Source of the DNA: Dehalococcoidia bacterium
GTDB lineage: Bacteria > Chloroflexota > Dehalococcoidia > GIF9 > UBA5629
Direction of reading: 5' to 3'
NCBI GenBank assembly: GCA_050014895.1
Contig: JBEKCL010000003.1
Span: forward strand, 1 to 45,412
DNA length: 45,412 bases
Each line of letters begins with the position of its first letter. Within the stretch, counting starts at the first letter, position 1. The translations under genes were made by a program, and so were the position numbers. Below, one piece after another: positions 31,193 to 36,772 of the stretch. The notes beneath the pieces are model-generated. The model did no database searches and was not told the DNA's origin. It worked only from the letters and a program-made list of their open reading frames with translations.

Positions 31193-32242
31193 ATGGTCAT
31201 GGCGGAGGGACTGCTTTACGATAAACTGGATGGGCAACGCGTGCGTTGTAACGTCTGCTTGTGGCGGTGCGTTATAAACCCCGGCAAGACAGGTGTGTGC
31301 GGAGTAAGGCGGAATGAAAACTGGTCGGTCGTGCCGTTGAATTACGCCAAAGTCTCCTCACTGGCCGCTGACCCAATCGAGAAAAAACCTCTATTTCATT
31401 TCTTCCCGGGCAGTTCTGTACTATCCTTTGGCGGAATCGGCTGTAATTACCATTGCCTGCACTGCCAGAACTGGGAAATAGCTTGCGTTGAAGAACCGGA
31501 CAAAGTTCTTAAGAGCATCCGTGAAATTCAACCGGAGGAAGCTGTGCGAATGGCGAAAAGCCGGAAATGTACAGGCCTGGCCTGGACTTACAATGAACCG
31601 GTCATCTGGTTGGAATATACTTTGGATTCAGCCAGGCTGGCGCATGAAAACGGCCTTTATACTGCATTTGTCACCAACGGCTATGCTACTCCCGAAGCGC
31701 TTGACCTGCTCGGCCCCCACCTGGATGCCTGGCGCGTCGATGTCAAAGGCTTTTCTGACAAGCTATACCGGGACCTGGCTAAAATTTCCAACTGGCGCAG
31801 CATTCTCGACGTGGCGGAGAGGGCAAGGCATAATTGGAACATGCATGTCGAGGTGGTTACCAACATAATTCCAACCATGAACGATGACGATGAGCAGTTA
31901 TCCGGCATTGCCCACTGGATCAAGGAAAAACTGGGTGAGCTAACGCCCTGGCATATCACCCGTTTTCACCCATACCGGGATATGGCGCATCTGCCGCCAA
32001 CTCCCATGTCCACGTTAGAGAAAGCTTACAAAATAGGTACGAAAGCCGGTCTGCGATTTATATACATGGGCAATGTACCGGGTAATGCTCATGAAAATAC
32101 GGTCTGCTACAATTGCGGCAAGATCGTTATTGAGAGGATAGGCTACAACACCAGAGTGTCGGGTGTAAAGGACTCATGTTGCGCTTACTGTGGCGCCGAT
32201 TTAAATATCAGGAGTTCGCTAAAGACGGGGGTAATAAAATGA
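31193..32242 (+). CDS. amrS: AmmeMemoRadiSam system radical SAM enzyme
   Basis: N-terminal CxxC..C..C, DPIEKKPLFHF, CNYHCLHCQNW, TYNEP and C-terminal CxxC pairs. Confidence 0.95.
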   Translation: MVMAEGLLYDKLDGQRVRCNVCLWRCVINPGKTGVCGVRRNENWSVVPLNYAKVSSLAADPIEKKPLFHFFPGSSVLSFGGIGCNYHCLHCQNWEIACVEEPDKVLKSIREIQPEEAVRMAKSRKCTGLAWTYNEPVIWLEYTLDSARLAHENGLYTAFVTNGYATPEALDLLGPHLDAWRVDVKGFSDKLYRDLAKISNWRSILDVAERARHNWNMHVEVVTNIIPTMNDDDEQLSGIAHWIKEKLGELTPWHITRFHPYRDMAHLPPTPMSTLEKAYKIGTKAGLRFIYMGNVPGNAHENTVCYNCGKIVIERIGYNTRVSGVKDSCCAYCGADLNIRSSLKTGVIK

Positions 32243-33045
32243 TCAGGGAAGCCGCTGTTGCAGGCCAGTTCTACCCGGCCTGGCCCAAGGAATTGAAGGA
32301 AACGATCAAATTCATGGTGGATAAAGAAGCCGCCAAAGTGGATGCCATAGGCGTTGTATCTCCCCATGCCGGCTATATTTACTCGGGGCCCGTGGCGGGC
32401 GCTGTATTCTCCCGTATAAAATTTAAAAATACGTTTATCCTGATAGGGCCTAATCACCGCGGAATGGGCAAGCATTTAAGTATTATGACAGGCGGGAGTT
32501 GGAAAACTCCAATGGGAGAAGTAGAAATCAATACCGAGATGGCACAGGCTATTTTAGAAGCATCCGATAATCTCGAGGAAGACAGTCTGGCTCACCGCTA
32601 TGAACATTCCCTTGAAGTACAGGTGCCGTTTTTGCAGTATTTCAAGCCTGACATAATGATAGTTCCTATCGTACTGTCACAGGCCGCACCGCCGATATAC
32701 GAGGAGATAGGACGTGCGATAGCAAAGGTGTTGAAAAAGTCCGGCAATGACGCAGTGATTGTAGCGAGCAGTGATATGACGCACTACGAACCACACGAGA
32801 AGGCGAAGGAAAAAGATAAAAAAGCTATTGAAGCCATCCTCGACCTGGATACGGCCGAACTTGTAAAACGCATTGAACGGTACAACATCACAATGTGCGG
32901 TTATGCTCCGGCTATAAGTCTCATCACCGCTGCCAAAGACCTGGGAGCAAGGAAGACTGAGTTGGTTAAATACATGACAAGTGGCGACACTTCAGGGGAC
33001 TTCTCGAGTGTAGTAGGATATGCCGGCATAATAATCAGCAGGTAG
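32239..33045 (+). CDS. amrB: AmmeMemoRadiSam system protein B (MEMO1 family)
   Basis: [39 protein letters not shown] and VGYA motifs; ATGA overlap with amrS. Confidence 0.95.
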
Positions 33046-33055
33046 GAATGCAGAT

Positions 33056-33571
33056 ATGAATAAGGAAATGCATCCGCTGGTCCAACTGGCAAAAAAAGCT
33101 GTGGAAAGCTATGTGAAAAACCATGAATTGGTCAGGGTACAGGAGCTGTCGCCGGAAATGAAAACAGAGGCAGGCGTCTTCGTATCCCTCAAAAGACATG
33201 GGCAATTGCGGGGCTGTATAGGCACGTCCGAGCCAATCCAGTCGAATGTCGCCGAAGAAATTATACAGAATGCCATTTCTGCGGCGGTCAGGGACCCGAG
33301 GTTTGACCCTGTCAGGCCTGATGAGCTGGCTGATCTGGAGTACAGCGTGGATGTATTGACACCCCCGGAGCCGGTGAAGAGCAAGGCTGAGCTTGATCCC
33401 AAGAAGTACGGTTTAATTGTTCAGTGCGGCTACAGGCGTGGCTTGCTATTACCCGACCTGGCAGGTGTTAAAGACGTACAGACGCAAATAGATATATGCT
33501 TGCAGAAAGGCGGCATTTCCAGCACCGAGCCTGTCAAACTTTATCGCTTCAAAGTCAATAGATACAAGTAG
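33056..33571 (+). CDS. amrA: AmmeMemoRadiSam system protein A (AMMECR1 family)
   Basis: GVFVS, LRGCIGT, DPRF and GLLLP motifs. Confidence 0.95.
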
Positions 33572-33600
33572 TAAATAAATAGCGGTTGTAATAGTCCTGT

Positions 33601-33627
33601 CTATTTGTTATGTTATATAACAAATAG
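33601..33627. promoter_or_regulatory. Inverted repeat abutting the RBS of the CetZ-like gene
   Basis: CTATTTGTTAT-gttat-ATAACAAATAG; overlaps the start of AGGAGG. Confidence 0.55.
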
Positions 33628-33639
33628 GAGGCCGATCAT

Positions 33640-34749
33640 ATGAAGTTGGTAGTAATCGGCATCGGTGATTGTGGCAGCAATATTGCAGCGGAATTTGTCC
33701 GCCTTAATAGCAGGGCCAGGTCCGAGACCGGGGTAGAAGTAATTGTACGGTCTTATGCCATCAACGACGACTTGGTAGCTTTGAACGCACTGCGCAAGGT
33801 TGGAGACAAGCTTCTTACCATACAATTGCCTGCGCCCTCTTCTTCCGGTAAGGAATCTGAGATAGGGGCTGAGCTGATGAAGGCCAACGGCGACCGCATC
33901 ATTGCCACCATGAGGGCAGGGGAGTTCTTCGAGACGGATGCCTTTATGCTGGTGGCGGGCAGCGCCGGCTTTATAGGTTCCGGCGGAATATCGATCCTGG
34001 CCCGGAAACTGAAGGAAAGGTATGTTAATAAACCGGTTTATGCCCTGATCGTGCTTCCCTTAAGCGCTGAAAGCAATATCCCAACAAGTGTTTACAACAC
34101 AGCTCTATGTTTGAAATCCATCGACAAAACGGCGGACGCGGTATTTTTGTTCGACAATGAGAAAGTCAGGTCCGAAGCCAGTATAAAGTCGGCTGCCAGC
34201 AACGATGCCGTTAACCGCGAAATTGTGACGCCATTCTTTGAGTTACTTCGCGCCAGTGAAAAAGTTGACCCCAAATTCCTGGGAACAAGCAACATAGGCA
34301 TCGGTGATATTGTACAATCGCTCAATGGCTGGACAGCCATCGGTTACGGTACAGCTCAGATATCTTCCGGCGGCTTGTCCCTGTTTAAAAATCGCGATAA
34401 TTTCGAACATAAAGGTGAAGAAACCGTGAAGGCCATGGAAGCGATGAGTGCCGCTTTGAGCCATTTCTCGATAGACTGCAAACTGGAAAATGCCCGTAAG
34501 GCTTTATACCTGATGTGCGTGCCAAGTAAAAATGCCAATATTAACATGACCAGGTCAGTGGGAAACAGGCTCCGCGAACTAACCAATAACGGTGAGGTGA
34601 GGGGAGGAGATTTCTACGGTGTAAAAGATCACGCAGCGGTTACGCTGGTGGCTTCCAGGATAAACTACCTGGAGAAAATCAAAGACTATTATGAACGGGC
34701 TTCCATAATGGCGCCGGACCTCAAAAAGCGAGAGACACAGTCGCCATGA
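33640..34749 (+). CDS. Tubulin/FtsZ superfamily protein, CetZ-like, with degenerate GTP-binding motifs
   Basis: MKLVVIGIG, ETDAF, LKERY..PVYAL.VLP, FDN, N.EIV..F, IGYG and EVRGGD are collinear with archaeal CetZ. Confidence 0.85.
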   Translation: MKLVVIGIGDCGSNIAAEFVRLNSRARSETGVEVIVRSYAINDDLVALNALRKVGDKLLTIQLPAPSSSGKESEIGAELMKANGDRIIATMRAGEFFETDAFMLVAGSAGFIGSGGISILARKLKERYVNKPVYALIVLPLSAESNIPTSVYNTALCLKSIDKTADAVFLFDNEKVRSEASIKSAASNDAVNREIVTPFFELLRASEKVDPKFLGTSNIGIGDIVQSLNGWTAIGYGTAQISSGGLSLFKNRDNFEHKGEETVKAMEAMSAALSHFSIDCKLENARKALYLMCVPSKNANINMTRSVGNRLRELTNNGEVRGGDFYGVKDHAAVTLVASRINYLEKIKDYYERASIMAPDLKKRETQSP

Positions 34750-36122
34750 CTCTCTTCGACCTCGGCTCTCCTGATCTACATGGTAAAAAGGCCGCCGGGG
34801 ACAAAGCAGGACCACCTCCCAAATCAGCCATGCCCCTGGCCGCGCGCATGCGCCCGCGTAATTTCAGTGAATATGTCGGTCAGCAGCATATTATCGGCGA
34901 AGGTAAAGTACTGCGAAAGGCCATTGAAGCAGACCAGCTACCGTCGATAATTCTATGGGGTCCCCCGGGCAGCGGCAAGACGACACTGGCGCAGGTAATA
35001 GCCAATGTATCGAGCTCTTATTATGTACACATGAGTGCGGTTACCGCCGGTGTGGCTGACCTGCGCAAGGTGGTTGACGAAGCACGCAGGCGTGGTAAAG
35101 AGACCGGACAACGCACAATACTGTTCATCGACGAGATCCATCGCTTTAATAAAAGCCAGCAGGATGCAGTGCTCCCTTTTGTCGAAAATGGTGAGGTGAC
35201 GTTCATCGGTGCGACCACCGAGAACCCCTCGTTCGAAGTGATTTCGGCTTTGCTGTCGCGCTCACGTGTTTTCACGTTAAATGCCCTGACTGATGATGAA
35301 ATCCGGACTATTGTTGAAAGGTCCTTGAAGGACACGGAAAATGGACTGGGGACGATGAACAACGATGTTGCTCCAGATGCACTCCAGCAACTGGTAACAC
35401 TATCGAACGGGGATGCGCGGGTGGCGCTCAACGCTCTTGAGATGGCTGCTCAGGCGGTAAAGCCTGATAAAGATGGGATACGGCATATTAGCCTGAATGA
35501 CATTGAAGAATCGATGCAGAAGCGGGCATTGCTCTACGATAAGGCCGGCGATCAGCATTACGATCTGATTTCCGCCCTGCACAAAACGCTGAGGGGCTCC
35601 GACCCGGATGCTGCACTCTACTGGATGGGAAGGATGCTTGAAGCGGGCGAGGACCCCCTGTATATAGTGCGAAGACTGATACGTTTCGCTTCTGAAGATG
35701 TGGGAATGGCCGATCCGCAAGCGCTGGTAATTTGCATGGCTGCCCAGCAGGCAGTGCATTTCGTCGGCATGCCGGAATGCAACCTGGCGCTGGCAGAAGC
35801 TGTTGTATACCTTGCGACCGCTCCTAAAAGCAATTCTTTATATTCAGCTTATTCGAACGTGCAGCAGGATGTAGAGCGCACACGCAACGACCCCGTTCCC
35901 CTGCACCTGCGCAACGCGCCCACACGCCTGATGAAGGACATGGGCTATGGTAAAGGGTACAAGTATGCTCATAATTTTGAAGGCCATTTCGTCGAGCAGC
36001 AAAATCTGCCGGAATCAATGAAGAACAAACGCTATTATTTTCCGTCAGACCAGGGGTTTGAAAAAACCATTTTGGTGAGGTTGAAGGCCTGGTGGGGAGA
36101 ACGGATGGGAGACAAGAAATGA
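34746..36122 (+). CDS. rarA: Replication-associated recombination protein A (AAA+ ATPase)
   Basis: PLAARMRP, GPPGSGKTT, FIDEIHRFNK, GATTENP, RGSDPDA, ASEDVG and PKSNS motifs. Confidence 0.97.
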   Translation: MTLFDLGSPDLHGKKAAGDKAGPPPKSAMPLAARMRPRNFSEYVGQQHIIGEGKVLRKAIEADQLPSIILWGPPGSGKTTLAQVIANVSSSYYVHMSAVTAGVADLRKVVDEARRRGKETGQRTILFIDEIHRFNKSQQDAVLPFVENGEVTFIGATTENPSFEVISALLSRSRVFTLNALTDDEIRTIVERSLKDTENGLGTMNNDVAPDALQQLVTLSNGDARVALNALEMAAQAVKPDKDGIRHISLNDIEESMQKRALLYDKAGDQHYDLISALHKTLRGSDPDAALYWMGRMLEAGEDPLYIVRRLIRFASEDVGMADPQALVICMAAQQAVHFVGMPECNLALAEAVVYLATAPKSNSLYSAYSNVQQDVERTRNDPVPLHLRNAPTRLMKDMGYGKGYKYAHNFEGHFVEQQNLPESMKNKRYYFPSDQGFEKTILVRLKAWWGERMGDKK

Positions 36123-36772
36123 AACCGGAGCATGTCACTTTTCCATGCGGCAAAATAAATCTTGAAGGGGTCTTTTTCGGGAATGGGGCTAAAGGGCCGC
36201 TGCCGGCAGTGGTTGTCTGCCATCCACATCCGCAATATGGCGGCTCAATGAGCAATAACGTGACTCATGCCATAGCCGGAGCGTTAGCGACGGTGATGGT
36301 TAACGCCTTCCTTTTTAATTTTCGAGGGGTCGGGGCAAGTGGCGGCAGCTACGGAGGAGGCATAAAAGAGCAGCAGGACGTTGTAGCTGCGCTGGACTGG
36401 CTCCAAAAAAGGCCTGATGTGAATCCGGCAAAGCTCGGCCTGGCGGGTTATTCTTTCGGCGCTGGCGTTGTATTTCCGGTTACCTGTTCTGATGAGCGCG
36501 TGCAGGGTGTCGCCCTGGTTTCGCCCTATTTCGAAGATGCGCAGGAGAGCCTGCTGAGCGGCTGCGCCATACCGAAGCTGATTATGGGAGGTAGTGAAGA
36601 CAAGGTGGTTTCAGCGGATACTGTCCTGCTTTATGGCCGCCAGGCTGCTGAACCGAAGCAGGTGGAAATAATAAAGGGTCCCGACCATTTTTGGAACGGC
36701 TTTGAAGATATGATGGCTGAGAACGTCGCAGAGTTTTTTAACGGTCTATTTTCGAAAAATCAGGGTATGTAG
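36119..36772 (+). CDS. Alpha/beta hydrolase
   Basis: HPHPQYGGSM.N, FNFRGVG.S.G, GYSFG and DHF motifs; ATGA overlap with rarA. Confidence 0.9.
   Translation: MKPEHVTFPCGKINLEGVFFGNGAKGPLPAVVVCHPHPQYGGSMSNNVTHAIAGALATVMVNAFLFNFRGVGASGGSYGGGIKEQQDVVAALDWLQKRPDVNPAKLGLAGYSFGAGVVFPVTCSDERVQGVALVSPYFEDAQESLLSGCAIPKLIMGGSEDKVVSADTVLLYGRQAAEPKQVEIIKGPDHFWNGFEDMMAENVAEFFNGLFSKNQGM

Follow-up and report, generated by a model that had tools for sequence, protein, structure and literature searches.

A CetZ-like tubulin with a degenerate nucleotide pocket and a conserved T7 acid in Dehalococcoidia, and its intact paralogue

The Tubulin Gene and Its Product

The DNA analysed here is a window of 45,412 nucleotides, positions 1 to 45,412 of contig JBEKCL010000003.1 (assembly GCA_050014895.1), from a Dehalococcoidia bacterium of the Chloroflexota. 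On its forward strand, at 33640..34749, is a gene for a CetZ-like tubulin in which much of the GTP pocket has been replaced. We refer to this gene and its clade as the D-type, to the intact CetZ-like paralogue as the I-type, and to the genome containing the window as G000. The D-type reading frame is intact and encodes 369 amino acids. A Shine-Dalgarno sequence, AGGAGG, can be read directly at 33626..33631 on the same strand, 8 nt ahead of the ATG. Both features had been pointed out in a preliminary description made from the letters alone, and both are borne out.

The product matches the Pfam Tubulin model (PF00091) with 83.4 bits against a cut-off of 33 and, over residues 187-354, the CetZ_C model (PF21011) with 49.9 bits against a cut-off of 21.6. 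The FtsZ model TIGR00065 gives 29 bits against a cut-off of 295. The closest solved relatives are CetZ1 (4b46) and CetZ2 (4b45) of Haloferax volcanii. The alignment to 4b46 pairs query residues 1-359 with chain residues 1-366 (E 2e-30), so the full-length collinearity with CetZ proposed earlier is confirmed. An AlphaFold2 model built on an alignment of 75 clade members has a mean predicted local distance difference test score (pLDDT) of 88.8 and a predicted template modelling score (pTM) of 0.89. Searched with Foldseek, it returns CetZ2 and CetZ1 at the top with a template modelling (TM) score of 0.78 normalised to the query and 0.86-0.87 normalised to the target; TubZ and FtsZ rank behind, and the Foldseek probability is 1.00 for CetZ, TubZ and FtsZ chains alike. 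Pfam, AlphaFold2 and Foldseek agree on the superfamily architecture, a Rossmann-type GTPase domain followed by a C-terminal activation domain, and retention of the fold, as first supposed, is upheld. In the database, 2052 proteins match the D-type at E<=0.001. As judged from its sequence, the D-type gene is a full-length, folded CetZ-like member of the tubulin/FtsZ superfamily in Dehalococcoidia.

Nucleotide Pocket and T7 Loop

Motif states were counted in two sets. Alignment A1 has 75 D-type rows. The second set has the 116 database matches of at least 330 amino acids drawn from the 120 best; a 117th row in that count was the I-type of the window genome itself and is excluded. All of the 120 best matches, with identity down to 43%, are D-type.

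The T1 loop (33664..33675, forward strand, as are all the motifs that follow) reads G9-D10-C11-G12 where the canonical form is GQxG. The Gln position is never Gln in A1 (D 61, N 9, K 3, G 1 and R 1 of the 75) and never Gln among the database matches (D 97, N 13, G 2, K 1; the other three lack the N-terminus). The T3 region, residues 63-72 (33826..33855), is without GHGVG and is 5 residues shorter than in the I-type; GHG is absent from T3 in 116/116 database matches. The T4 signature, S108-A-G-F-I-G-S-G-G116 (33961..33987), has AGFIGSG in place of GGGTGSG and so does not match the superfamily signature [SAG]-G-G-T-G-[SAT]-G. At its Thr position all 75 A1 rows and all 116 database matches have a hydrophobic residue (L, F, I or V), and Thr occurs in none of the 75. 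The third Gly is kept in just 4/75 and is otherwise replaced by bulky, variable residues. Members from one other family of the order, f2, have T4 eroded further (AWGNFGSV, AGGNFGSK, ADGNFGSM). The canonical CetZ pocket residues GQAG, GHGVG and GGGTGSG are therefore not those of the D-type. Since the same substituted states are conserved across D-type members, the altered motifs are a trait of the clade and not private decay.

The T7 loop, residues 215-224 (34282..34311), reads IGIGD. Its first Asp is Gly in the query and still Asp in 15/75 A1 rows. The catalytic acid, D223 (codon 34306-34308), which aligns to E218 of CetZ1, is kept: D or E stands there in 75/75 A1 rows and 116/116 database matches. 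The importance of this residue is known from CetZ1.E218A, a GTPase-dead, hyperstable and dominant-negative form of CetZ1 (PMC13556191). Several contacts elsewhere in the pocket are also retained. G113 is present in 75/75 A1 rows, and G110, S114 and G115, also of T4, are invariant or nearly so. P140 of T5 is near-invariant, and E144 is found in 70/75 rows with D in the other 5. N173 of T6 is kept in 70/75 and N192 of H7 in 74/75.

The preliminary description had read these motifs as GDCG, a shortened T3, AGFIGSG and IGIGD, and the alignment agrees with it throughout; its notion of coordinated substitutions also survives, in A1 and in the database matches. Its statement that every nucleotide motif is eroded went too far, given the residues of T4, T5, T6 and H7 just listed. 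On T7 it erred where it counts: the first Asp is lost, but the catalytic acid is not.

A C-terminal tail motif is found in 0/75 D-type rows. Its strict form occurs in 31/44 rows of the I-type and related genes; the remaining 13/44 miss the strict pattern, and several among those listed end in IPVLL or IPLLL. The D-type has the traits of a pseudo-GTPase class, namely a kept fold, key motifs replaced, replacements conserved and, as described below, purifying selection.

Origin and Distribution

Trees were made with FastTree (147 rows) and with IQ-TREE under LG+C20 (76 rows). Together with motif typing they divide the sequences into three groups: the D-type; P1, the order's canonical paralogue, which includes the I-type; and P2, a second intact paralogue. 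Support for the D-type clade is 100%, and its sister group is the order's P1, with 98% in the Shimodaira-Hasegawa-like approximate likelihood ratio test (SH-aLRT) of IQ-TREE. We also considered the D-type as a diverged P2 orthologue. Forcing D-type and P2 together was rejected with p 0.0012 in an approximately unbiased (AU) test run under LG+G4 on 34 of the 76 rows, with the group named after the tree was seen. These trees indicate that the D-type originated when a canonical CetZ-like gene of the I-type lineage was duplicated within one order.

CetZ-like genes are the rule in the window's order, with at least one in every one of 41 genomes. In an evenly drawn sample of 301 genomes from the class, 67 have a CetZ-like match. 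The D-type was called by its score on a D profile, 488-574 bits as opposed to at most 474 for all other places. By this measure, its occurrence in the class sample is confined to three families of the window's order: 9/9 genomes of f1 (to which the window genome is added), 2/2 of f2 and 1/1 of f5. All 13 D-carrying genomes, taken from the near-complete genomes of the class sample and the window genome, have the I-type alongside, and none has a third, P2-like match. This is the obligate co-occurrence of paralogues that one looks for in a heteromeric pair. In the 41-genome set, D-carriers without a detected I-type are G007, G012 and G017, with completeness of 87, 84 and 67%, and the genomes showing just one of the two types are all 67-87% complete. 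Two further families of this order, f3 and f4, have P1, P2 or both, and the D-type in neither.

Carriers of the D-type (f1, f2, f5) are thus without P2, and carriers of P2 (f3, f4) are without the D-type. The D-type may have taken P2's place in f1, f2 and f5. All of its members come from uncultured lineages of peat and wetland. DNA near-identical to window positions 32176-36122 occurs in public peat metagenome runs and, to a smaller share, in a pond metagenome run.

Within the wider class, the Dehalococcoidia CetZ-like sequences make up a well-supported branch of their own beside GQAG-type sequences, whose reference representatives come without taxon names. Fourteen other genomes of the class, some of them closed and single-contig, have 26 CetZ-like genes, and 24 of these keep T4 GGTGSG intact. 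An IPSLL-type tail ends 21 of those 24; the other three are the GQAG-/GQCG-type genes of G047 and G188. In G127 (L079) and G287 (L080), the CetZ-like gene has T3 GRGVG, T4 GGTAAGC, no first Asp in T7 and no IPSLL tail. By its motifs, this gene appears to mark another CetZ-like lineage that has become partly degenerate on its own. Being the sole CetZ-like match in those closed genomes, it lacks an intact partner. Lastly, GQAG/GGGTGSG-type CetZ-like genes in G033 (L071), G047 (L087, two in tandem) and G188 (L088) group with other GQAG-type representatives, apart from the main Dehalococcoidia branch. These may reflect separate acquisition or contamination.

Selection and Regional Constraint

The ratio of nonsynonymous to synonymous substitution rates (dN/dS), estimated by the Nei-Gojobori method (NG86), was compared for both genes in the same genome pairs. 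For the closest pair, G000-G002, with dS of 0.21 in both genes, it is 0.091 for the D-type and 0.021 for the I-type. Nine other pairs give 0.065-0.276 for the D-type and 0.036-0.114 for the I-type. The value of 0.09 is far from the ratio near 1 that the preliminary description had named as the sign of a decaying copy, and almost all relatives have an unbroken frame. The D-type is under purifying selection, yet it is several-fold less constrained than the I-type.

Regional constraint was measured as mean column identity in 19 genome-matched D/I pairs; the columns are non-independent, and the p-values are only indicative. Over the T1-T6 loops, mean column identity is 0.96 in the I-type and 0.45 in the D-type, a drop of 0.51 as compared to 0.28 elsewhere (Mann-Whitney p 2.5e-5). 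For individual loops, the D-type and I-type values are 0.23 and 0.95 in T3, 0.42 and 0.99 in T5, and 0.31 and 0.99 in T6/H6. The drop is 0.35 across the N-domain and 0.23 across the C-terminal activation domain (p 0.002). Relaxation in the D-type is concentrated on the nucleotide-binding, or upper, face, which is its least constrained part.

The Intact Paralogue and the Predicted Complex

The window genome is 89% complete and encodes three tubulin-family proteins: a canonical FtsZ, whose gene adjoins FtsA, the I-type and the D-type. An intact CetZ-like paralogue, to be looked for in the same genome according to the preliminary description, therefore exists there. The I-type gene encodes 393 amino acids and lies on the minus strand of contig 28 (L002 865-2046). 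Its motifs are GQCG, GHGVGK, AGGTGSGA and MDAGD. D-type and I-type are collinear, with 44% identity over 364 residues. In 12 genomes the two genes are 2.3-11.8 kb apart on one contig.

The I-type gene has a near-consensus promoter, TTGACA-17-TATAAT, and a Shine-Dalgarno sequence, AGCGAGG, which are kept in 10/11 genomes compared; the D-type gene has nothing comparable. Directly upstream of the I-type is a conserved gene (L002:2131-3501, minus strand; also L034:29-955, plus strand) for a protein of repeated immunoglobulin-like (Ig-like) segments with a single transmembrane helix near the C-terminus, followed by a short cytoplasmic tail that has GGWK at its end. No NCBIfam model matches this protein. 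It could be a membrane partner for the LPSLI tail of the I-type.

A complex of I-type residues 1-368, D-type residues 1-358 and GTP was predicted with our own alignments and with the ligand, in both of which it departs from the calibration. The median interface score (ipSAE, interaction prediction score from aligned errors) is 0.39, from runs of 0.15, 0.58 and 0.39, and the best of 3 controls is 0.00. The mark for a pass is reached by 58/80 solved complexes and by 2/110 mismatched pairs. At least 73% of contacts are shared between the runs, and the partner pLDDT is no lower than 84. We graded this as weak support. Of the structure predictions envisaged in the preliminary description, the one for the D-type alone is confident, and the one with the paralogue gives weak support for binding.

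Genomic Context

The D-type gene is part of a string of genes on the forward strand. It begins with the AmmeMemoRadiSam radical SAM enzyme (31193..32242; TIGR04337, 308 bits), encoded upstream in the same operon. Next is AmmeMemoRadiSam protein B, of the MEMO1 family (32176..33045; TIGR04336, 329 bits), in which the family match starts from residue 24; translation probably begins downstream of the listed ATG. AmmeMemoRadiSam protein A, or AMMECR1 (33056..33571; TIGR04335, 152 bits), is directly upstream of the D-type. Downstream is an open reading frame with a family match to the RarA/MgsA-type AAA+ ATPases (34746..36122), whose ATG overlaps the D-type stop as ATGA. The last conserved member is an alpha/beta-hydrolase-like gene with weak family matches (36092..36772). 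The order is then radical SAM, MEMO-like, AMMECR1, D-type, rarA, hydrolase. By our reading of the tblastn tables, AMMECR1 is upstream of the D-type in 23/24 assessable genomes and rarA is downstream in 23/25. In many genomes, the stop codon of AMMECR1 directly adjoins the start of the D-type gene. Among five relatives of the same order that lack the D-type, three (L094, L097, L098) have AMMECR1 followed directly by rarA, with gaps of 160, 74 and 18 nt. This adjacency is presumed to be the ancestral arrangement. It implies that the D-type was inserted into a pre-existing operon, which weakens any inference of function from the neighbourhood.

In the query's subclade, the spacer between AMMECR1 and the D-type is longer and includes a promoter-like element of its own. 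In the window, this is a tentative TG-n-TATATA of the extended -10 type at 33600..33621 on the forward strand. It was picked out by eye from the upstream regions of 7 close orthologues, and these relatives have TCTGTTATGGTATATA upstream of the D-type gene. A scan for sigma-70 consensus -35/-10 sites from AMMECR1 to the D-type gene found 0 sites. Overlapping the TG-n-TATATA element and abutting the D-type Shine-Dalgarno sequence is a perfect 11-nt inverted repeat (33601-33611 and 33617-33627, with a 5-nt spacer). It is not conserved as a repeat in the relatives compared.

Logan contigs from 4 wetland/peat RNA libraries include short pieces 92-99% identical to parts of the D-type gene, covering, for example, 33621-33771, 34212-34355, 34510-34758 and 34615-34765. 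The parts not covered carry no meaning. These contigs are at most a hint of expression, since they give neither strand nor level and may come from DNA carry-over.

The envelope genes bear on what kind of cell houses these tubulins. The 89%-complete window genome has no match to FtsW/RodA or to a penicillin-binding protein (PBP) transpeptidase. No true MreB was found in it; matches to the MreB model are limited to FtsA and a 637-amino-acid open frame, which we take to be an Hsp70-type protein. One gene with a Mur-ligase domain is present. The gene set would be compatible with a wall-less cell, and the preliminary suggestion that the lineage probably lacks peptidoglycan fits with it.

Proposed Mechanism and Alternatives

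Our favoured interpretation, held tentatively and at somewhat less than an even chance, is that the D-type is a subunit dead for the GTP switch whose T7 face binds to I-type filaments, where it acts as a cap, terminator, modulator or heteropolymer partner. The preliminary description had supposed a nucleotide-independent cap, nucleator or inhibitor of an active CetZ or FtsZ. This is supported in part, but the protein may not be nucleotide-independent, as contacts to the base, the ribose and some of the phosphates persist. After the duplication, the gamma-phosphate and switch machinery would have been lost through the change of Gln to Asp in T1, the deletion of GHGVG from T3 and the replacement of Gly-Thr in T4 by a variable and a hydrophobic residue. 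The C-terminal LPSLI docking tail would also have been lost, and the activation domain and T7 catalytic acid kept. Such a protein would no longer run a GTP cycle of its own. Its T7/H8 face could dock on that side of an I-type subunit or filament end which carries the GTP and there trigger hydrolysis of the partner's GTP, while any next subunit would be offered a degenerate, fast-evolving upper face. Towards I-type filaments, the D-type would then be an end-cap, a terminator or a modulator, or else a constant partner in a heteropolymer. We infer that it has lost nucleotide binding, binds the I-type and has a cellular role in shape or envelope organisation of a wall-less cell.

The main clue to this mechanism is the kept T7 acid. 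Loss of parts of the pocket, a hydrophobic T4, a freely evolving upper face, a retained T7, a lost tail and an intact parent that is always present together favour a modulator that binds ends or co-assembles. Because the D-type originated from the I-type lineage, the interface it inherited would be the CetZ-like one. In archaea, CetZ2 offers a precedent by both limiting and stabilising the assemblies of CetZ1, and mutants in T7 are dominant there (PMC13556191).

A more specific form of the proposal, which we regard as somewhat unlikely, makes the D-type a filament-end "catastrophe/capping subunit" that was built from the polymer's own fold and replaced P2. Its intact T7 face would add to the GTP-exposing end of an I-type filament and fire hydrolysis of the terminal GTP, and its nucleotide-free, freely evolving upper face would block further growth. 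Failing that, the pair could be an independently evolved bacterial heterodimer with an asymmetry opposite to that of alpha/beta-tubulin.

A number of observations weigh against docking on the I-type. Given the near-invariant contacts in T4, T5, T6 and H7, the D-type may still bind a guanine nucleotide. The T7/H8 segment, which should form the contact, has a conservation of 0.50 in the D-type against 0.79 in the I-type. The D-type gene is in an operon with the AmmeMemoRadiSam genes and rarA, not with the I-type, and in the query's own subclade the two tubulin genes lie on separate contigs. In G014, the D-type gene (L099:2269-3347, minus strand) has one frameshift and a stop in a variable loop near residue 241, between intact rarA and AMMECR1 genes, and this is either a recent inactivation or an assembly indel. 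As for the co-fold, scores of at most 0.60 include only 7 of the 80 solved complexes and both of the mismatches that pass. Its pass may come from likeness to, or memory of, solved CetZ/FtsZ protofilaments such as 4b45. The orientation of the contact is our own inference; the co-fold returned no interface.

An alternative that we consider unlikely is that the D-type keeps a guanine nucleotide bound, either as a fixed structural cofactor or in a GDP-like state that has no gamma-phosphate switch, and forms its own static homopolymer or scaffold independently of the I-type. Contacts to the base, the ribose and part of the phosphates are conserved (N173, N192, E144, G113-S114-G115), the T1 position is D or N in 70/75 and could bind Mg2+, and the fold is modelled with confidence. 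Against it stand the deletion of T3 and its free evolution (column identity 0.23), a third Gly of T4 that is down to 4/75, with a Thr position that is always hydrophobic and deeper erosion in f2, a constraint on the upper face as a whole that is lower than anywhere else in the protein, and the constant presence of the I-type with the D-type.

The conserved neighbourhood raises the prospect that the D-type works with its operon partners, as a scaffold, substrate or localisation factor for the AmmeMemoRadiSam system, RarA or both. The positions of AMMECR1 (23/24) and rarA (23/25) and the apparent translational coupling to both, by abutting and by the ATGA overlap, speak for it. We think it quite improbable, since AMMECR1 and rarA adjoin each other in 3/5 relatives without the D-type, so that the operon is older and works without the tubulin. 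The D-type looks like an insertion that borrows the operon's expression, and in the query's subclade even the spacer is longer and has its own promoter-like element. AmmeMemoRadiSam genes, moreover, occur far beyond this lineage.

It is very unlikely that the target is the FtsZ division ring instead of the I-type. FtsZ and FtsA are encoded in the window genome, and a longitudinal-interface architecture is common to FtsZ, the I-type and the D-type as a superfamily trait, but the D-type is 44% identical to the I-type, scores only 29 bits on TIGR00065 with its cut-off of 295, and derives from the I-type, so its inherited interface should be CetZ-like.

Finally, a decaying pseudogene or misannotated relic, for which one could cite the non-canonical motifs, the frameshifted G014 copy and a copy in pieces in G001, is ruled out to all intents by the dN/dS of 0.09 and the conserved substituted states, to which are added the frame intact in nearly all relatives, the confident model, RNA-library contigs of 95-99% identity on parts of the gene (weak evidence) and, in G001, a fragmented rarA next to the fragmented D-type, which points to assembly errors.

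Relation to Known Tubulins

The resemblance of the D-type to CetZ1 and CetZ2 of H. volcanii (4b46, 4b45) takes in full-length collinearity, the Tubulin and CetZ_C domains and the T7 acid at E218. CetZ1 and CetZ2 are also a pair of paralogues in which one member modulates the assemblies of the other (PMC13556191), which for the D-type and I-type is only proposed. They differ in having archaeal hosts, in being only about 22-24% identical to the D-type in the fold alignment, with Dehalococcoidia on a branch of their own, and in that both have the canonical GQAG and GGGTGSG and need their GTPase, whereas the D-type pocket is rebuilt. The I-type shares with the D-type the T7-H8 motif GD(I/M)xQ(S/T)L and the C-terminal domain. 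It is distinguished by its canonical motifs, a C-terminus 24 residues longer and ending in LPSLI, its own promoter and an approximately four-fold lower dN/dS.

Alpha/beta-tubulin and BtubA/BtubB consist of two paralogous subunits with asymmetric nucleotide chemistry, in which the T7 acid of one serves the GTP of the other. Both subunits of alpha/beta-tubulin bind GTP, and the asymmetry is made by the beta T7, with Lys for the acid, and by the non-exchangeable site of alpha. In the putative heterodimer of D-type and I-type, the asymmetry would instead be made by a degenerate pocket together with an intact T7. The FtsZl1 and FtsZl2 families are divergent FtsZ-like proteins whose function is unknown and which may not form canonical filaments (Makarova and Koonin 2010, as cited in PMC3160578). 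They are separate, distant families, whereas the D-type branched off recently from a canonical CetZ-like gene and is matched by the Tubulin and CetZ_C models.

CetZ proteins are treated as archaea-specific tubulins of shape control (Brown and Duggin 2023, PMC9856176). One phylogenetic paper refers in passing to the bacterial Dehalococcoidia CetZ-like branch (Santana-Molina et al. 2023, PMC9871819), and the proteins reported there belong to the same bacterial branch as the D-type. The main-text passages on these proteins mention neither a motif-degenerate paralogue nor pairing with an intact copy, and they do not describe gene context. A full-text literature search, which covered main texts, found no paper on a motif-degenerate bacterial CetZ-like member. 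What appears to be new here is a form of CetZ-like tubulin that, from its motifs, is degenerate in the pocket, competent in T7 and without a tail.

If our interpretation is true, a naturally selected subunit whose pocket is dead and whose T7 is live forms, together with its active paralogue in wall-less bacteria, a simple two-gene system. It would inform the division of labour between a nucleotide holder and an activator, which is the step that led to alpha/beta-tubulin. It would also inform how shape is controlled in cells that have neither peptidoglycan nor MreB.

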